Notes under the pieces: model-generated
Told to the model about the DNA's origin: nothing
What the model saw: only the letters and a program-made list of their open reading frames with translations
The model's database searches: none
Made by a program: the position numbers and the translations under genes
From: an uncultured archaeon
GTDB lineage: Archaea; Asgardarchaeota; Heimdallarchaeia; Heimdallarchaeales; Heimdallarchaeaceae
Assembly (NCBI GenBank): GCA_964549075.1
Contig: CAZJUB010000061.1
Location: 4,458-16,073 of the forward strand
Length of the DNA stretch: 11,616 bases
Direction: 5' to 3'
Part shown: positions 5,462 to 11,616 of the stretch, in pieces
Position numbering within the stretch: position 1 is the stretch's first letter
How the letters are laid out: the number at the start of each line of letters is the position of its first letter

Positions 5462-6870
5462 CACTAAAGAAAAAAGCAAGATCAAGATTTGTTAGATTCA
5501 TTGGTAAAAAACTTCGCGAGGATACACCAACTCTTCAGGTTTATTCCAGAGATATGGCCGATCTTCCTTCACTTGTAAGTATATTCTTCAAGAACAAACC
5601 TGATGGTGTCATTTTAGTTAATACAGTAGAGGATATCCAGACAATCTATGCTATTGCCAACGAAACTAAAACTCCCATAACTCAAAGAGGAGCTGGAACT
5701 GCGGGATTAGGCGGAAGTATTACTTATAACGGTGGTTTAGTTATCGATACTAAGGGTATCGAACAGAAATTTTTCTTTGATCCATTGGAGCAAACAGTAA
5801 CAGTTAATCCTTCTTATGTGTTCTCAGATTTACAACGAGAGTTAAAATTACAAGGTCTTTCATTATGCGCTTATCCATCGAGTTATCATTCAGCTACAAT
5901 TGGTGGTTGGATTGCTCATGGCGGTCATGGAATTGGAAGTGCACAGTACGGAGGAGCTTTAGATCAAATTGTGGAATTAGAGGTCGTGTTACCAACAGGT
6001 CACCTTGTAAAATATACAGAAAAAGATCATATCTCACTTTTTGTAGGATCTCATGGAACACTTGGAACTATAACTGAAGTAACTTTGAAAGTGAAGTTTG
6101 ATATCCCACTGAAACATCAAGGATGTACTTTTGATTCTCCTGAAGAACTCGTAAGAGGTCTTAAAGATCTTAGTTTAACATTCCCATATTCAGTTTGGTT
6201 TCTAAATCCAAAACATGTAGCTTTATTTAATGAGACCTTCGGATACAATTTGCCCAATAGATATGTAGCGATAATCTCAAAGGAAGTTAGTTTTGAAGAG
6301 GAAGAACAAGAATTTAATAGAATCTTTAATAATGCTATAAGGAACTCAGGTGGTCAAATCCTTGATCGAAGATACACCGAAGATATCTGGAAATTCCGAT
6401 TTAGATCTCTTTCAATGCTAAAACATTGCAGTGATTATGTTGTATCAGAAGTTATACTGCCAATTGAGAATAGTGATAAATATTTACGCAAATTAATCAC
6501 TAAATTCAAAGGGAATATTCATCTGGAAGGTGAGTTTATCTCTCCTACTCATTATGCTTTACTTATGTACATACTTTCGGATGAGAAAATGTCTCCTCTT
6601 AAGAAAACACTACTGAATTTAAAATTATACAATGTTTCTCTAAAGAGTAAAAAAGTCAAAGGACATCCTTATTCGACAGGATTGTGGTTTGCAGGTTACT
6701 ACAGTCAGATATACGGAAAAGATGAATTTCGAAGATATAAGGAATTTAAGAAAAGTGTAGATCCTAAGAATATTAGTAATCCAGGAAAAGTATTATCTCC
6801 CAAAATAAGATTTTTCCCAGTAGTAAGTCTAAAATTCGCAGTGAAATTAGCAAGTAGGTTGATGTTATGA
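5458..6870 (+). CDS. FAD-binding oxidoreductase, VAO/PCMH superfamily (GlcD / D-lactate dehydrogenase-like)
   Basis: PITQRGAGTAGLGGS, YPSS...ATIGGWIA..G.G....YG, LFVGSHGTLGTITEVTLK and C-terminal DPKNISNPGK. ATGA overlap with the upstream gene. Confidence 0.9.
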   Translation: MTLKKKARSRFVRFIGKKLREDTPTLQVYSRDMADLPSLVSIFFKNKPDGVILVNTVEDIQTIYAIANETKTPITQRGAGTAGLGGSITYNGGLVIDTKGIEQKFFFDPLEQTVTVNPSYVFSDLQRELKLQGLSLCAYPSSYHSATIGGWIAHGGHGIGSAQYGGALDQIVELEVVLPTGHLVKYTEKDHISLFVGSHGTLGTITEVTLKVKFDIPLKHQGCTFDSPEELVRGLKDLSLTFPYSVWFLNPKHVALFNETFGYNLPNRYVAIISKEVSFEEEEQEFNRIFNNAIRNSGGQILDRRYTEDIWKFRFRSLSMLKHCSDYVVSEVILPIENSDKYLRKLITKFKGNIHLEGEFISPTHYALLMYILSDEKMSPLKKTLLNLKLYNVSLKSKKVKGHPYSTGLWFAGYYSQIYGKDEFRRYKEFKKSVDPKNISNPGKVLSPKIRFFPVVSLKFAVKLASRLML

Positions 6871-7304
6871 AAATTAAAGAATATGAGTTTCCAGATAATT
6901 TGTTATATGTAACAGGAGAACCAGGTCACTTTTGGGTGGAACAGATTTCTGAAAAGAGAATCAAATTAGGAATAGATCATTATGCTTCTTCAAGAGCAGG
7001 TACAATAGAATATGTTATGACAATGAAGATTGATAAAAGCATAAAGAAAAATGAAACAATAGGCACAATTGAAAGCGGGAAATGGGTGGGACAACTCAAA
7101 TCACCTATTGATGGAAAAATTGTTGAGAAAAACGAGAATTTACGTAAAAATCCAAGTCTTATTAATAAAGATCCTTATGGTGAAGGCTGGATTTTAATTT
7201 TAGAAGGAAATGATTTGGAAACTCAATTTGAGGAGAATGAGTTAATAGTACCTGCTGGGGAAAAACTTGAGGAATATATATTGTGGAGAATTAATCAAGA
7301 GTAA
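6867..7304 (+). CDS. Lipoyl carrier protein, glycine cleavage H-protein family (GcvH/LbpA-like)
   Basis: HFWV...IKLGIDHYA...G, lipoyl-Lys motif GTIESGKWVGQLKSP (K72) and NPSLINKDPYGEGWI. ATGA overlap with the upstream gene. Confidence 0.9.
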   Translation: MKIKEYEFPDNLLYVTGEPGHFWVEQISEKRIKLGIDHYASSRAGTIEYVMTMKIDKSIKKNETIGTIESGKWVGQLKSPIDGKIVEKNENLRKNPSLINKDPYGEGWILILEGNDLETQFEENELIVPAGEKLEEYILWRINQE

Positions 7305-7351: not shown

Positions 7352-8254
7352 TTGTTTATGACAAGCTGGTTTATACTTCTATTTGCACTTTTACAAGGTA
7401 TTTTAGAATGGTTACCAGTTAGTTCTCAAGGTCAAACTGTTTCCTTATTAATTGCAGTTGTACATCTAAATCAAGAATTAGCTTTTCAGATAGCAATTTG
7501 GCTTCATTTAGGAACCTTGCTCGCTGTTTTAATTAAATATCGTAAAGAAATATTTCAATATCTTAATCTTAAAAACAAAGATCCTAGTGTGGTTCAGTGG
7601 AGGAATTTCTTAATTTTTAGCACATTAGGTACAATAGTAACTGGTGTTCCTTGCTTTCTGTTAGTTCGATATTTAATAAAAGATAACACCAATTTTGGAG
7701 AGTATGTTATGCTACTGATAGGTATTGCACTTATAGTTACTGCAATATTATTGTTCTACTCTGAAAGAAAGAAAAGACAATTAGAAGCACAAGAAGAAGA
7801 AATTAACACAGAAAGTTCAGATAAGAGAGATTTCTTCAAATATAATGCAATTGAAAATCTCTCTAAATTACAAATGACAGTTAGTGGATTGTTTCAAGGA
7901 TTCTCAATTATACCCGGTATCAGTAGATCGGGTGTTACTATGAGTGGATTGCTTTTTATGGGAACAAAAAAAGAAGATGCCATTAAAGGAAGTTTTCTCA
8001 TGAGTATACCAGCTGTAATTGGAGGTTTTATCCTTGACTTAACATTTACAGCTATACAAGTTTCTCAAGAAGGCGGAACAATAATTCCAGTTGATTGGTG
8101 GCAGCTTTTAATCGCTTTAGCTATTACTGCAGTAGTTGGTTATCTTACAATGGAAATATTCCTATTTGTAGCAAGAAAATATAATTTCTCAATCATCTGT
8201 CTGATTTTAGGAATTGTTACAATAATCTTATTTGCTGTACGTTTCGCTGCTTGA
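7352..8254 (+). CDS. uppP: Undecaprenyl/polyprenyl-diphosphate phosphatase (BacA/UppP family); real start may be the ATG at 7358
   Basis: QGILEWLPVSSQGQ, LHLGTLLAV, GLFQGFSIIPGISRSGVT and SFLMSIPA motifs. Multiple transmembrane segments. Confidence 0.92.
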   Translation: MFMTSWFILLFALLQGILEWLPVSSQGQTVSLLIAVVHLNQELAFQIAIWLHLGTLLAVLIKYRKEIFQYLNLKNKDPSVVQWRNFLIFSTLGTIVTGVPCFLLVRYLIKDNTNFGEYVMLLIGIALIVTAILLFYSERKKRQLEAQEEEINTESSDKRDFFKYNAIENLSKLQMTVSGLFQGFSIIPGISRSGVTMSGLLFMGTKKEDAIKGSFLMSIPAVIGGFILDLTFTAIQVSQEGGTIIPVDWWQLLIALAITAVVGYLTMEIFLFVARKYNFSIICLILGIVTIILFAVRFAA

Positions 8255-8263
8255 AAGTAAATC

Positions 8264-8288
8264 TAGAAAAAGAATATTTTTTTCTCTC
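8264..8288 (+). terminator. Putative T-rich terminator after uppP
   Basis: An A-tract, then a T-run and CT-rich tail, about 10-35 nt after the TGA stop. Confidence 0.4.
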
Positions 8289-8289
8289 T

Positions 8290-8306
8290 AAAAGAATTTT
8301 TATATA
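8290..8306 (+). promoter_or_regulatory. Putative BRE/TATA element (AAAAGAA...TTTATATA) for the GTPase operon
   Basis: A purine-rich tract followed by TTTATATA, about 130 nt upstream of the ATG at 8439. The downstream gene carries an SD, consistent with a leadered mRNA. Confidence 0.4.
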
Positions 8307-8428
8307 ATCAGATAGGAAATAACATTAAAAATCATGTAATTAAATTACAGTTAGCGAAAACATTAAATTAACCATAGTGATTATAGAATTGTTTAGACTT
8401 ACCGTACTCCAGCTCAATTAGGTAAAAA

Positions 8429-8434
8429 AGGTGA
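8429..8434 (+). promoter_or_regulatory. Shine-Dalgarno AGGTGA for GTPase gene 1
   Basis: AGGTGA ends 4 nt before the ATG at 8439. Confidence 0.6.
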
Positions 8435-8438
8435 ATGA

Positions 8439-9449
8439 ATGTCTTTCTATGAGTTTCGAAAACGTATTCTAGAAGAAAAACAAAAGCGTGAACAGCAACA
8501 AGTTAAACCAGTTGGAACAGATGCATCAAGACAAGAAACCGTTATTGGGAGAAACAAGTTTAGTGTAGCATTACTAGGTCTAGAAAGAGCTGGAAAAACT
8601 TCTTTAGTTAAAAAATTATTAAAACAAGAAGATATTGTAGTGCGACCAACTTATGGGGTTAACCTCGAAAATTATCAATATCGAGATTTGAACTTCACAT
8701 GTTTTGATTTGGGAGGTCACCAACCTTTCCGTCTTAGTTTATGGAAAAAGTTTATTGAAAGAGCAGATGGAGTGATGTATCTTGTAGATTCTGCAGATCA
8801 TGCTAGATTTGAAGAATCTAGACAAACTTTTTGGCACTATATTAATTTTGCAAAACAAAATAGCCCTGTACTGTTTTTAGCAAATAAAAGTGATTTGCCA
8901 AATTCTAAAGAACTATCTGAGATAAATGAAAAATTTGAATTAGATAAATTTCTGAGAAATCTTCGACCATTCAACATCAAAAAATGTTCAGCTCTAACAG
9001 GTCAGGGAGTATACGAAGCTTGGGATTGGATGGTAGATGTTCTTTGTGGTGCTCAACAATGGAAAGTAAAAATAGGTGCTGCAGTTTTAGCTGATGTTGA
9101 AGGTAATATCCTCTCTGAAGCTATTTTTGGTAGACCTAGTGATCAAGCTATTATTGCTAATGACTTCAAGAAATTAAAAGAGTTAACTCGTTTATTCGCC
9201 ATTGAGTCAAAGGAGAGTATTCAGTCTGTTAAACTTGAAAGTCTCTTTAAAAAGCATGTAAGTCATGTTAAACGCGGTGCATATTGTTTGTCAGTTATGA
9301 TTGATCCTATAGATCCAGTTACAAGAGCACAACAAATTCAATTGAGAATACTTGAAAACTTCAGTCGTAATCCTATTGACGTTCAGAAAAACTTAGGTGA
9401 AGTTTTCGAAAGCAAGTTCCCATTAGAAGTAGAAGGAGGACGTAGATAA
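8439..9449 (+). CDS. Arf/Sar1-related small GTPase fused to a C-terminal longin/roadblock-like domain
   Basis: G1 GLERAGKT (47-54), G2 PTYG (T71), G3 FDLGGH (89-94), G4 NKSD, G5 CSAL, and Arf-type 'LW..F...ADGVMYLVDSAD..RF' and 'W(D)WM'. The C-terminal ~125 aa 'IGAAVLADVEGNIL...' shows a beta-beta-alpha-beta-beta-beta-alpha pattern. Confidence 0.88.
   Translation: MSFYEFRKRILEEKQKREQQQVKPVGTDASRQETVIGRNKFSVALLGLERAGKTSLVKKLLKQEDIVVRPTYGVNLENYQYRDLNFTCFDLGGHQPFRLSLWKKFIERADGVMYLVDSADHARFEESRQTFWHYINFAKQNSPVLFLANKSDLPNSKELSEINEKFELDKFLRNLRPFNIKKCSALTGQGVYEAWDWMVDVLCGAQQWKVKIGAAVLADVEGNILSEAIFGRPSDQAIIANDFKKLKELTRLFAIESKESIQSVKLESLFKKHVSHVKRGAYCLSVMIDPIDPVTRAQQIQLRILENFSRNPIDVQKNLGEVFESKFPLEVEGGRR
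9433..9440 (+). promoter_or_regulatory. Shine-Dalgarno AAGGAGGA for GTPase gene 2, embedded in the 3' end of gene 1
   Basis: Ends 9 nt before the TTG at 9450. Confidence 0.6.
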
Positions 9450-10445
9450 TTGAGTGGTTACTTATCCTTCATCCGTGATAAACTTATTTCTTCTCAAGAA
9501 CAGAAGATACCTCAATGTGCTATCTTGGGATTAGAAGGATCAGGCAAATCCAGTGTAGTGAGTCGTCTGTTATATGGAACTGTCTCAGAAGATCAACCGT
9601 TACAACAAACATGCTATATTAATGTAACATACGGAAAATCAACTATAACAGTTCTTGAAGCAGATGAAGAAACTTCTCGTGAAAGTCCTTATTTCCAGGA
9701 TATTCTTGGAAAGATTGATGGTATCGTTTTTGTGATTGACACACAATCGATGAGGCACGTTGAAGCTTCTTTCGAATATATCTTCAGTTTGTTTGATAAA
9801 ATTCCTCAAAAAACCTCAATTTTATTTTTAGCAAACAAAACTGATCTTCAGGATAGTGTACCATTTCCTGATTTACTTCAGGATCCAGCTTTTCAAGTTA
9901 TTATGGATGATATCAATAGATCTGTGTCCATTTATCCAGTAAGTATCAAAACTGGAGAAAACTTTTACACAGCTTTTGATTGGATAATATCAAGAATGAC
10001 TGGTAGAACTCCTTTGAGAGAAGAAGTTACACCTAAAAGAGTAATTATTCTTCAAGAAGGTGGAGTTCCAGCTTTTGACCATATTTTTGATACTTCTATA
10101 GAAGAACATGATAGCACACTTCTAGGAGGGCTGATAAGCGCTTTGAACATTATGGCTTCTACAATTTTCGAATCTGAATCTGTGATGGATGTAGTGAAAC
10201 TAGGTGGAGTCAAAATGGTTATAAGAAAAATGGGAGGGTGGAGTATTGTACTATTTGTTGATCGAGACGATAGTGAATCGAAAGCTCAATCTCTCGCAGA
10301 AGAGATTCTTAATGCATTTCAGGAAGAAAAAGAAAGAGATCCATCCAAGGATCTTCCCAAACAGATTAAATATGAATTTCTAACCAAGATACCTGAAATT
10401 GCTATACTTTTAGATCAACAACCAGATAGAAAAGATGAGTATTAA
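9450..10445 (+). CDS. Arf-related GTPase paralog with degenerate switch motifs (probable pseudo-GTPase) fused to a longin-like domain
   Basis: G1 GLEGSGKS, G4 NKTD, G5 VSIKTG and 'FDWI' are retained. G2 PT is replaced by PL and G3 DxxG by EADEE. C-terminal 'VIILQEGGVPAF...DSTLLGGLISALNIMA...VKLGGVKMVI...SIVLFVD...LAEEILNAF' is longin-like. TTG start with SD. Confidence 0.82.
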   Translation: MSGYLSFIRDKLISSQEQKIPQCAILGLEGSGKSSVVSRLLYGTVSEDQPLQQTCYINVTYGKSTITVLEADEETSRESPYFQDILGKIDGIVFVIDTQSMRHVEASFEYIFSLFDKIPQKTSILFLANKTDLQDSVPFPDLLQDPAFQVIMDDINRSVSIYPVSIKTGENFYTAFDWIISRMTGRTPLREEVTPKRVIILQEGGVPAFDHIFDTSIEEHDSTLLGGLISALNIMASTIFESESVMDVVKLGGVKMVIRKMGGWSIVLFVDRDDSESKAQSLAEEILNAFQEEKERDPSKDLPKQIKYEFLTKIPEIAILLDQQPDRKDEY

Positions 10446-10449
10446 GGAG
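10444..10449 (+). promoter_or_regulatory. Shine-Dalgarno AAGGAG for gene 3 of the operon
   Basis: Overlaps the TAA of gene 2 and ends 10 nt before the ATG at 10460. Confidence 0.55.
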
Positions 10450-10459
10450 AAAACAGCAA

Positions 10460-11230
10460 ATGATAAACCCAAATGTAACAAAAGAACCATCGCTGGTATT
10501 CAGTATTTTCAAGGATTTTGGACCCGATATCCTCTTCAATAATTCGACTTTAGATGAGAATACTGCACTAACTTTAGTTATGAGTGGAATGACAATTGTA
10601 GAGATGGATAAAACTTCAATAGGAAGGTTAGATGGTTCAAAAAATCCAAAAATGCTTGGACCTATTCCTGTTCCAGAGCATGAGCAATTGAAAGCAATAG
10701 CTATTCCTTTTGAGACTGAAATCACTTCATCAACTGATGAAAGAATAGTAGCAGCTGGTCACCGCTTATGTGTTGCTTATTTCCTTTTTGAGGGCATAGC
10801 AGTAAGAGATGTTTTGGATAGTTATGGTTTAATTGAACCATACTTTACTATGATTGGTAGAGGATTACAGAAAGAATCTGATATCAATCCAACTACTATC
10901 AAACAATTATATACAAGAATGGTAGATATGTTCTCTGGAAAGATTCCGAGAATTTTTGCTATAAATCCAGATAATTCTCTAAAAGAGATGATAGGTAAGA
11001 GACTTGAGTATGCTGACACTTACCTGCTTTGCGATTTAAACAAGAATGTTATGTATATCCTCTTATATAATCCTTCAATGGATGTATGGCGAAGAAGAGA
11101 TATCTATAAAGTAGCATCTGAATTAAATTCTAATATGTTTAGAAGCTCTATGAGAATAAAAACTATTGAAGATGTAAAAGAGATGGTCAGAATATTAGAG
11201 ATTCTAAATATTGAAATAGCTCCAGTCTAA
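10460..11230 (+). CDS. Hypothetical protein: putative uDENN/longin domain (aa ~10-135) plus gelsolin-like domain (aa ~163-251)
   Basis: The ORF itself is solid (SD, operon context, 256 aa). Domain calls are from motif resemblance only: 'LVFSIFKDFGPDIL' and 'DERIVAAGHRLCVAYF' for uDENN/longin; 'PRIF...L...DTYLLCD....MYI....R...A.EL...IKTIED..E...LEIL' for a gelsolin repeat. Confidence 0.6.
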   Translation: MINPNVTKEPSLVFSIFKDFGPDILFNNSTLDENTALTLVMSGMTIVEMDKTSIGRLDGSKNPKMLGPIPVPEHEQLKAIAIPFETEITSSTDERIVAAGHRLCVAYFLFEGIAVRDVLDSYGLIEPYFTMIGRGLQKESDINPTTIKQLYTRMVDMFSGKIPRIFAINPDNSLKEMIGKRLEYADTYLLCDLNKNVMYILLYNPSMDVWRRRDIYKVASELNSNMFRSSMRIKTIEDVKEMVRILEILNIEIAPV

Positions 11231-11234
11231 ACAA

Positions 11235-11264
11235 TTTTTTAACATACGAGAGATCTCTCTCTCG
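11235..11264. terminator. T6 tract plus 7-bp hairpin between convergent genes (putative terminator)
   Basis: TTTTTT at 11235-11240. CGAGAGA-TCTC-TCTCTCG stem-loop at 11247-11264, between the stops at 11230 and 11275. Confidence 0.5.
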
Positions 11265-11274
11265 ATTTCAATTT

Positions 11275-11616
11275 CTAAGGTACGTAACTCATCATCATTA
11301 AATCGTCGCGTACATGCCAACCCATCTTGAGATAAAATTCTTTAACACCTACATTATCAACTTCAATAAAAAGATGCACCTTTTTAACGTCTTTGAGTTT
11401 AAATCTATGATGCAATTCTTCCATCATCAATCTCCCGTAGCCTTTGTTCTGATATTCTGGATCTACAGCAAGGTGATGTACATAACCTCTTCTTCCATCA
11501 AATGCTCCTAATACAACTGCAACTATCTTCTCATCTACTAATCCGACTAGAAATAAATCTTTACTATATTCTAGGGATCTTTGTACTTGTTCTTTTGTAT
11601 CCGAAACTGTAAGGGT
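11275..11616 (-). CDS. GNAT family N-acetyltransferase (YpeA-like), 5'-partial; not in the ORF track
   Basis: Manual translation: ...DLFLVGLVDEKIVAVVLGAFDGRRGYVHHLAVDPEYQNKGYGRLMM...KKVHLFIEVDNVGVKEFYLKMGW...VP*. Acetyl-CoA motif A (LAVDPEYQNKGYG) and motif B (N..V..FY.K.G) are present. TAG stop at 11277-11275. Confidence 0.92.
   Translation of the reverse strand, partial: TLTVSDTKEQVQRSLEYSKDLFLVGLVDEKIVAVVLGAFDGRRGYVHHLAVDPEYQNKGYGRLMMEELHHRFKLKDVKKVHLFIEVDNVGVKEFYLKMGWHVRDDLMMMSYVP

Follow-up and report, generated by a model that had tools for sequence, protein, structure and literature searches.

A longin and gelsolin-fold protein encoded beside a Rag-like pair of small GTPases is a candidate GTPase regulator of Heimdallarchaeaceae

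In an 11,616-nucleotide stretch of DNA from an uncultured archaeon of the Heimdallarchaeaceae (assembly GCA_964549075.1, contig CAZJUB010000061.1, positions 4,458 to 16,073 of the forward strand; hereafter the window), a unit of three genes ends with one for a 256-residue protein that combines a longin domain with a C-terminal gelsolin-fold domain. We call this protein LG (longin-gelsolin) and the two genes directly upstream of it, which lie on the same strand and encode small GTPases, G1 and G2. LG carries the sequence marks of those longins that act as GTPase-activating proteins (GAPs), its C-terminal domain is homologous to the gelsolin-like domains of Asgard archaea, and the order of the three genes is conserved. 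On balance, we lean slightly towards LG being a longin-type GAP, or another regulator, of the co-encoded Rag-like G1-G2 pair; the gelsolin-fold domain would be an accessory module.

The structure of LG was modeled with AlphaFold2 from a diverse alignment of 34 sequences (19-92% identity to the query), giving a mean predicted local distance difference test score (pLDDT) of 86.0 and a predicted template modeling score (pTM) of 0.71, and the model was matched with VIA-align against 48,161 PDB representatives. Residues ~4-162 matched solved longins, with strands at residues 11-18, 21-27, 66-71, 74-87, and 101-111, and the best-scoring eukaryotic structures came from GAP complexes of the folliculin/NPRL2/SMCR8 class. 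The nearest solved relative, 8yqg, is titled a dimer. A first-pass annotation, made from the DNA sequence of the window, had described a gelsolin-like domain fused to a longin protein, and the longin part of that description is borne out by these matches. A first model, built from 17 close orthologues, had a poor longin half (pLDDT 63.2) and was replaced by the one used here.

According to the accessible text of PMC12290439, GAP longins are marked by a GP motif, which closes the loop leading into strand 2 or opens the strand itself, and by an arginine finger; the two marks are absent from FNIP2, NPRL3, and the non-GAP longins, and both occur in a class of Heimdall longins, whose partner GTPases are asked about there. 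In SMCR8, the arginine R147, equivalent to folliculin R164, sits in the longin β4-β5 (βL4-βL5) loop, as stated in the accessible part of 10.1101/2020.04.16.045708. LG has a GP motif (G21-P22) at the start of β2 and a conserved arginine, R95, in the loop that joins β4 (74-87) to β5 (101-111). G21 and P22 are invariant in the 34-sequence alignment; in a non-redundant set of 25 relatives, obtained by filtering the 45 aligned family members to <60% mutual identity and used for all counts out of 25 below, they are present in 24, the sole miss being an N-terminally cut open reading frame (ORF). In the same set, D93 and G67 are found in 25/25, and R95 and P70 in 24/25. Judging from these alignments, the most conserved residues of the LG family are those expected of a GAP longin, and since R95 and G21-P22 are among them, we read the LG longin as being of the GAP type.

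The C-terminal part of LG has a gelsolin/ADF-H fold. In the model, four strands open this part (residues 164-248) and are followed by a long helix (209-227), a further strand, and a short helix (239-248); the mixed β-sheet lies between the long and the short helix, and this arrangement is superposable on solved gelsolin domains. When the first model was searched with its low-confidence longin half trimmed, rows 1-23 of the structure matches were all gelsolin-family or Sec23/24 proteins and rows 26-41 were ADF-H/cofilin-type proteins, with no NPRL2 row among the matches. Foldseek, which the first-pass annotation had named as a check, had ProGel as its best gelsolin row for the LG model, at a value that is marginal on its own (E 1.1e-3 to 1.4e-3). 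The long Foldseek alignments of LG to Sec23/24 and GATOR1 chains, with root-mean-square deviations of 13-18 Å, are not rigid matches and were rejected; for this reason, we propose no counterpart of the C-terminal domain in NPRL2.

Sequence profiles were then compared. A hidden Markov model (HMM) of the C-terminal domain, run against 13,083 stop-to-stop frames of the same genome, matched one other protein (E 2.5e-6, model positions 4-90 of 97), which is 315 residues long (L036:817-1764 (-), G000:C14). The N-terminal domain of this second protein matches ProGel 7c2f_B by phmmer (E 1.5e-5), as well as two 2DGel entries (E 0.005-0.006), and this gelsolin-like domain occurs in 78 of the 81 genomes sampled from the class. 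Compared by hhalign with 30 such Heimdall gelsolin-like domains, the LG domain gave a probability of 97.0% (E 9.6e-11, 85 columns), which is far above chance; the resemblance of LG to gelsolin is homology, beyond topology alone. A pairwise BLASTP between the LG domain and the gelsolin-like domain of its own genome found nothing, Pfam Gelsolin (PF00626) was matched neither by residues 161-256 at E<=10 nor by the whole of LG, and a profile search of the PDB with LG returned no gelsolin, only three irrelevant matches (E 0.028-0.16). The gelsolin-like domain had been placed in the C-terminal ~95 residues on the strength of a peptide quoted at nucleotide 10946 and a gelsolin-repeat pattern. This placement was right: the model fold, the structure matches, the HMM, and hhalign agree, nucleotide 10946 opens the codon of P163, and 10946-11212 corresponds to residues 163-251.

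Within the Asgard gelsolin-like family, the C-terminal domain of LG has diverged: it has kept the fold and lost the tryptophan and glycine of DWG, a motif common to ProGel and 2DGel in the accessible text of PMC7444086. The aspartate that ends the central strand is kept as D192 (18/25, with asparagine in 5/25), whereas the Trp and Gly that follow it in gelsolin-like domains are absent: the W position is L or I in 21/25 and the G position is variable, compared to W in 29/30 and G in 30/30 of the Heimdall gelsolin-like domains. Conservation is otherwise seen at E176 (21/25), N223 (22/25), E241 (20/25), and also L246. The domain is retained in every LG relative examined and therefore matters. In the 315-residue gelsolin-like protein, which has no Pfam family, the domain is followed by a linker, long and acidic, and then by an uncharacterised C-terminal region. 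A 265-residue frame of the same genome (L038:1001-1795 (+), identical to G000:C2:35671-36465) has a weak match to the LG gelsolin HMM (E 0.0029, positions 4-64), with no Pfam or PDB sequence match.

Relatives of LG were collected by running phmmer exhaustively against 1.84 billion representatives; 45 were found at E<=0.001, 16 of them at E<=1e-10. By their source names, all named relatives are from Asgard archaea except one: P0089, a 266-residue protein 34% identical to LG, is labeled "candidate division Zixibacteria bacterium", which may reflect a binning error or a transfer. Near-identical proteins and others 61-99% identical to LG, all of 250-256 residues, are annotated as hypothetical and come, again by source names, from Candidatus Heimdallarchaeaceae or Heimdallarchaeota. 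A profile of the family matched 60 of the 201 genomes sampled from the phylum, and in seven taxonomic families every sampled genome was matched (f1, 21/21; f2, 7/7; f3, 1/1; f4, 2/2; f5, 10/10; f6, 3/3; f8, 2/2).

The association of LG with the two GTPase genes is conserved. Twenty-two orthologous loci (62-100% identity) were taken with flanks of 1.5 kb: G2 is the gene directly upstream of LG in all 22, and a fragment of G1 is present in 21, the last locus being cut by the end of its contig. Where longer flanks were available, the order G1-G2-LG is whole in 16/16 Heimdallarchaeaceae loci. Twelve distant LG loci were also picked by hand, not at random, and Pfam was run on 38 selected ORFs neighboring them. 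All 12 retain both the longin and the gelsolin-fold domain, and a Gtr1/RagA-family GTPase gene adjoins LG in four of them (L107, L108, L109, and L113). L107 and L108, both from another family (f5) of the Heimdall class, encode a Gtr1_RagA GTPase (E 1e-33 to 1e-34), a degenerate GTPase (Gtr1_RagA E 3e-5 to 5e-4), LG, and another Gtr1_RagA GTPase (E 4e-31 to 4e-32), and, beyond one or two more genes, an M50 peptidase. L109 has a Gtr1_RagA gene in convergent orientation (E 7e-37), and in L113, which belongs to another class of the phylum, such a gene lies just downstream (E 1.5e-32), with a divergent Ras-family gene upstream. In L116, a Ras-family fusion is encoded 2.2 kb from LG. The pattern of a canonical GTPase, a degenerate GTPase, and LG thus recurs in two taxonomic families with only ~27% identity between their GTPases, which argues for a functional unit.

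The degenerate GTPase of these f5 loci (L107:1511-7191 (+) and L108:1331-6450 (-)) keeps its P-loop, lacks DxxG, and has NRGH in place of NKxD; a 183-residue ORF between the GTPase run and the M50 peptidase gene is found in L107 only.

The two GTPases of the window differ in their motifs. Aligned with 12 orthologues, G1 shows a complete set, with a P-loop (GLERAGKT), a switch II (DLGGH94), and NKSD. Its best PDB matches are Arf1, and it scores E 1.3e-39 (135.9 bits) with Pfam Arf and 23.7 bits with Gtr1_RagA, whose cut-off is 22. The histidine of its DLGGH switch II, H94, is of the Sar1 type and is replaced by K or A in 3 of the 12 orthologues; the earlier remark that LG stands beside a Sar1-like GTPase agrees with this switch II and with the position of G1-G2 directly upstream. 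G2 keeps a P-loop (GLEGSGKS) and NKTD, and DxxG is absent from its switch II, which reads LEADEET instead; by its motifs, it may be a nucleotide-binding pseudo-GTPase partner. It scores E 2.1e-15 with Arf and 20.7 bits with Gtr1_RagA, under the cut-off, and its best PDB matches are Arf and Arl8. Both proteins end in C-terminal extensions of ~130-140 residues, a layout like that of the Rag GTPases, and by hhalign the two extensions resemble each other weakly (E 0.0017, probability 15.7%).

A complex of G1, G2, and two GTP molecules with LG as the partner was predicted alongside three controls. It scored 0.47, compared to 0.00 for the best of the three controls, and the runs agreed in at least 46% of contacts, with a partner pLDDT of at least 75. 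Swapping G1 for an unrelated protein brought the score to 0.00. Of 157 solved complexes, 116 reach the mark set for this score, as do 2 of 215 mismatched pairs; scores of 0.60 or less that still pass it were obtained for only 18 of the 157 solved complexes and for both passing mismatches. The outcome was graded as weak support: the prediction raises the odds that LG binds G1-G2 a little, without establishing binding, from a prior that synteny and motifs had already made favorable.

We infer that LG binds the GTPase pair, acts on it as a GAP, and uses its gelsolin-fold domain in this setting, and the parts might fit together as follows. LG would be the regulatory subunit of a three-gene small-GTPase module of Heimdallarchaeaceae. 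Its longin, of the folliculin/NPRL2/SMCR8 class, would most likely dock on the G1-G2 pair and insert R95 from the β4-β5 loop next to G21-P22, which would form part of the catalytic surface, so as to stimulate GTP hydrolysis. G1 would be the DLGGH-bearing member of the pair and G2 the divergent partner lacking DxxG. The gelsolin-fold domain, which occupies in LG the place of the C-terminal domains of folliculin and NPRL2, would probably be an accessory binding module, with the GTPase pair, actin, or another protein as candidate partners.

Several observations speak against LG being a GAP or regulator of a Rag-like pair. Pfam assigns G1 and G2 to the Arf family, not to the Rag family; their C-terminal extensions have no PDB sequence match, and ESM Atlas gave leads only, to Robl_LC7 and Gtr1_RagA clusters (scores 0.79-0.81), which do not reach a fold assignment. 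The predicted complex has a score in the weak band and came without an interface. Neither Pfam nor NCBIfam gives a family for the whole of LG, nor does Pfam for either half, even at E<=10. In 7 of the 12 distant loci, one of them a 2.8-kb contig, no GTPase gene was found among the neighboring ORFs scanned in the stretch fetched. Eukaryotic longin GAPs are heterodimers of two longin proteins, and there is no second longin gene in the G1-G2-LG operon. Finally, longin domains are more often exchange factors or platforms than GAPs. LG could be such a protein, an exchange factor or platform for the GTPase pair comparable to the longin and roadblock proteins of Ragulator, Mon1-Ccz1, and TRAPP, and not a GAP. 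We judge this rather unlikely, as the GP motif and loop arginine, which the accessible text of PMC12290439 reports as absent from non-GAP longins, are the most conserved features of LG, and as its best eukaryotic structure matches are drawn from GAP complexes.

A role in the cytoskeleton, to which we give a similarly low probability, would have the gelsolin-fold domain bind archaeal actin and either recruit or couple the GTPase pair to the cytoskeleton or make the GAP activity actin-dependent. Actin itself is encoded in the genome (G000:C18:14983-16092, 448 bits), as is another member of the actin family, and LG may bind actin, but the W and G of DWG that nearly all the Heimdall gelsolin-like domains keep are absent from the LG family, lowering the odds of such binding, and LG has no Pfam Gelsolin match. 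A broader version, that Heimdallarchaeia already recruited a gelsolin-fold domain into an Arf/Sar/Rag-type GTPase regulator, where it would touch the GTPase pair or actin and thereby couple nucleotide state and cytoskeleton in one complex, is a little less likely still. Far less probable than any of these is the proposal of the first-pass annotation that the domain is a Sec23-like GAP element with R244 as the arginine finger for the Sar1-like G1. R244 is an arginine in 14 of 17 close orthologues (D, Q, and H in the other three) and in only 4/25 non-redundant relatives, where K (6) and P (5) are also found; no arginine of residues 163-256 reaches 70% conservation, the best being R164 (15/25) and R213 (12/25), and the conserved arginine of the protein is instead R95 of the longin. 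Sec23/24 chains do align rigidly to LG, only over their gelsolin-like part (chain ranges 620-742), and the fold is closer to that of actin-binding gelsolins than to Sec23/24. With two domains in 256 residues, LG also lacks the trunk, β-barrel, zinc-finger, and helical domains of Sec23 and Sec24. What it shares with this pair (the COPII inner coat, with its Sar1 GAP) is a gelsolin-fold domain within a (predicted) Arf/Sar-family GTPase regulator, together with the Sar1-like DLGGH of G1.

Read as a candidate GAP-type longin, LG can be placed among known systems. It resembles folliculin/Lst7, NPRL2, SMCR8, and the GP-motif Asgard longins (PMC12290439) in its longin fold, GP motif, β4-β5 arginine, and association with Rag-like or Gtr1_RagA genes. 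It differs from them in having a gelsolin-fold C-terminal domain instead of a DENN or NPRL2 C-terminal domain, no second longin subunit alongside, no Pfam family, and neighbors that score as Arf; its GAP activity is a prediction. The Asgard gelsolins (ProGel and 2DGel of Thorarchaeota, and 2DGel of Heimdall and Loki; PMC7444086) stand alone or in tandem, whereas the LG domain sits behind a longin, has lost the DWG tryptophan and glycine, and lacks the Pfam Gelsolin match. The Rag-like pairs that the accessible text of PMC10933270 describes in strain MK-D1 are, like G1-G2, two adjacent genes that each encode a GTPase domain and a C-terminal extension; by the same text, GTPase genes of this strain do not, as a rule, share operons with genes for longin or roadblock proteins. 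NPRL2-like longins are abundant in Asgard archaea, with fusions to two-component domains, and folliculin-like longins occur as well (accessible part of 10.1101/2020.10.19.343400).

Asgard gelsolins, Rag-like pairs, NPRL2- and folliculin-like longins with their two-component fusions, and GP-motif Heimdall longins are thus already known. The accessible parts of PMC10933270 and 10.1101/2020.10.19.343400 contain no description of a longin-gelsolin fusion or of a GAP-type longin inside a Rag-like operon, and neither the fusion nor a GAP-type longin fixed in a Rag-like GTPase operon was found in the searchable full texts, supplementary datasets being outside this scope. For one family of GP-motif longins, the genome points to GTPase partners: the Rag-like pair here and, for distant relatives, adjacent Gtr1/RagA-family genes. 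G1, G2, and LG make a small expressible three-protein system for asking whether GTPase control in the style of folliculin and GATOR1 predates eukaryotes, and through LG a connection between GTPase control and a domain of cytoskeletal type becomes testable in archaea. The fusion bears on the reuse of cytoskeletal domains in GTPase regulation and on the origin of the gelsolin-like domain of Sec23/24. According to PMC11914678, the Sec23-like proteins of Asgard archaea have yet to acquire a gelsolin domain with which to control a GTPase. If Heimdallarchaeia did recruit a gelsolin-fold domain into a GTPase regulator in LG, this would be an archaeal precedent for that step, and LG would be the first longin GAP whose GTPase partners the genome itself names.

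Table 1 Features of the G1-G2-LG unit in the window.
Feature	Position	Strand	Remarks
G1 gene	8439..9449	+	336-residue Arf-family GTPase with ~130-residue C-terminal extension, Rag-like layout
G2 gene	9450..10445	+	331-residue divergent Arf-family GTPase with C-terminal extension
GGAG, candidate ribosome-binding site	10446..10449	+	10 nt before the LG ATG; putative function, from sequence
LG gene (longin-gelsolin)	10460..11230	+	256-residue ORF, two domains; last gene of the unit
Longin domain, residues 1-160	10460..10939	+	strand-strand-helix-strand-strand-strand-helices
G21-P22 (GP motif), start of strand 2	10520..10525	+	alignment and model
D93-E94-R95, β4-β5 loop	10736..10744	+	R95 candidate arginine finger; conservation and model
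Gelsolin-fold domain, residues 163-256	10946..11227	+	model, structure matches, HMM, hhalign
R244, proposed Sec23-like arginine finger	11189..11191	+	AGA codon; not conserved
Terminator-like hairpin, then T-rich tail	11247..11264	+	consensus scan; 17 nt past the LG stop codon; putative function in an archaeon

The layout of the three genes is compact (Table 1): the stop codon of G1 abuts the start of G2, and the GGAG is contained in the 14-nucleotide spacer between the stop of G2 and the ATG of LG. The hairpin past LG comes from a terminator consensus scan of 8200-11616, which gave 5 sites where 1.1 were expected, and the gene that follows LG is convergent. Upstream, on the same strand, the window encodes a glycine-cleavage H protein (6867-7304; Pfam GCV_H, E 2.9e-29) and an undecaprenyl-diphosphatase (7352-8254; BacA, E 7.5e-48), the latter ending ~185 nucleotides before G1.

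Parts of the stretch are contained in 22 public sequencing runs. One of them, a salt-marsh metatranscriptome, holds two 151-nucleotide contigs identical to window positions 10748-10898 and 10874-11024, which together span the boundary between the two LG domains (10748-11024), and gives no cover of the rest of the operon. These contigs are only a hint that LG is expressed, as carry-over of DNA is possible in such libraries. Salt-marsh metagenome DNA runs contain the whole stretch, and a marine-sediment run has a ~95% identical variant of the whole operon.

Further matches to the longin half of LG were collected. The longin HMM also hits the C-terminal parts of L032:1531-2394 (-), L031:970-1869 (+), and L035:1474-2811 (-), which come from the same genome (C1, C10, and C15); N-terminally, these proteins carry either the receiver domain of a response regulator (Pfam E 1.1e-15) or PAS domains (E 1e-6, with a weak E of 8e-4 for L031), and they fit the fusions of NPRL2-like longins to two-component domains described in the accessible part of 10.1101/2020.10.19.343400. 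In one family, the gene of the LG relative is followed by that of a ~200-residue protein, near CheR and MCP genes (L115:2741-3340 (-) and L027:2361-2951 (+)). This protein has weak longin/roadblock matches (Fuz_longin_1 E 1e-4 to 0.011, Robl_LC7 E 0.048) and is, on that basis, a possible second longin subunit. In another lineage (L105:4212-6338 and L106:4300-6395), downstream of the gene of the LG relative and in the same orientation come a small unannotated ORF of 130-141 residues, overlapping or abutting, a GCD14-type methyltransferase gene, and a JAB/MPN gene.

Pfam run on 43 distant relatives returned sub-threshold matches only, and an ESM Atlas search with the whole protein gave no usable match. 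No longer fused form of LG (530-2000 residues) was found at E<=0.001 among 7,995 candidates, which is weak evidence. Some LG paralogues carry ~90-100 extra C-terminal residues (L110:3288-4325 (-), L109:3679-4590 (+), and similar ORFs of 344-358 residues), and one of these extended paralogues has a PCI/winged-helix match that stays below threshold (E 0.0031; 18.1 bits, cut-off 22). In related genomes, the LG profile also matches, with its longin half, the start of much longer open frames of 621-864 residues (G074:C1:1918656-1919111, G026:C1:1791069-1791524, G003:C19:38117-38551, and G086:C26:5419-5814), which may be larger folliculin-like architectures.

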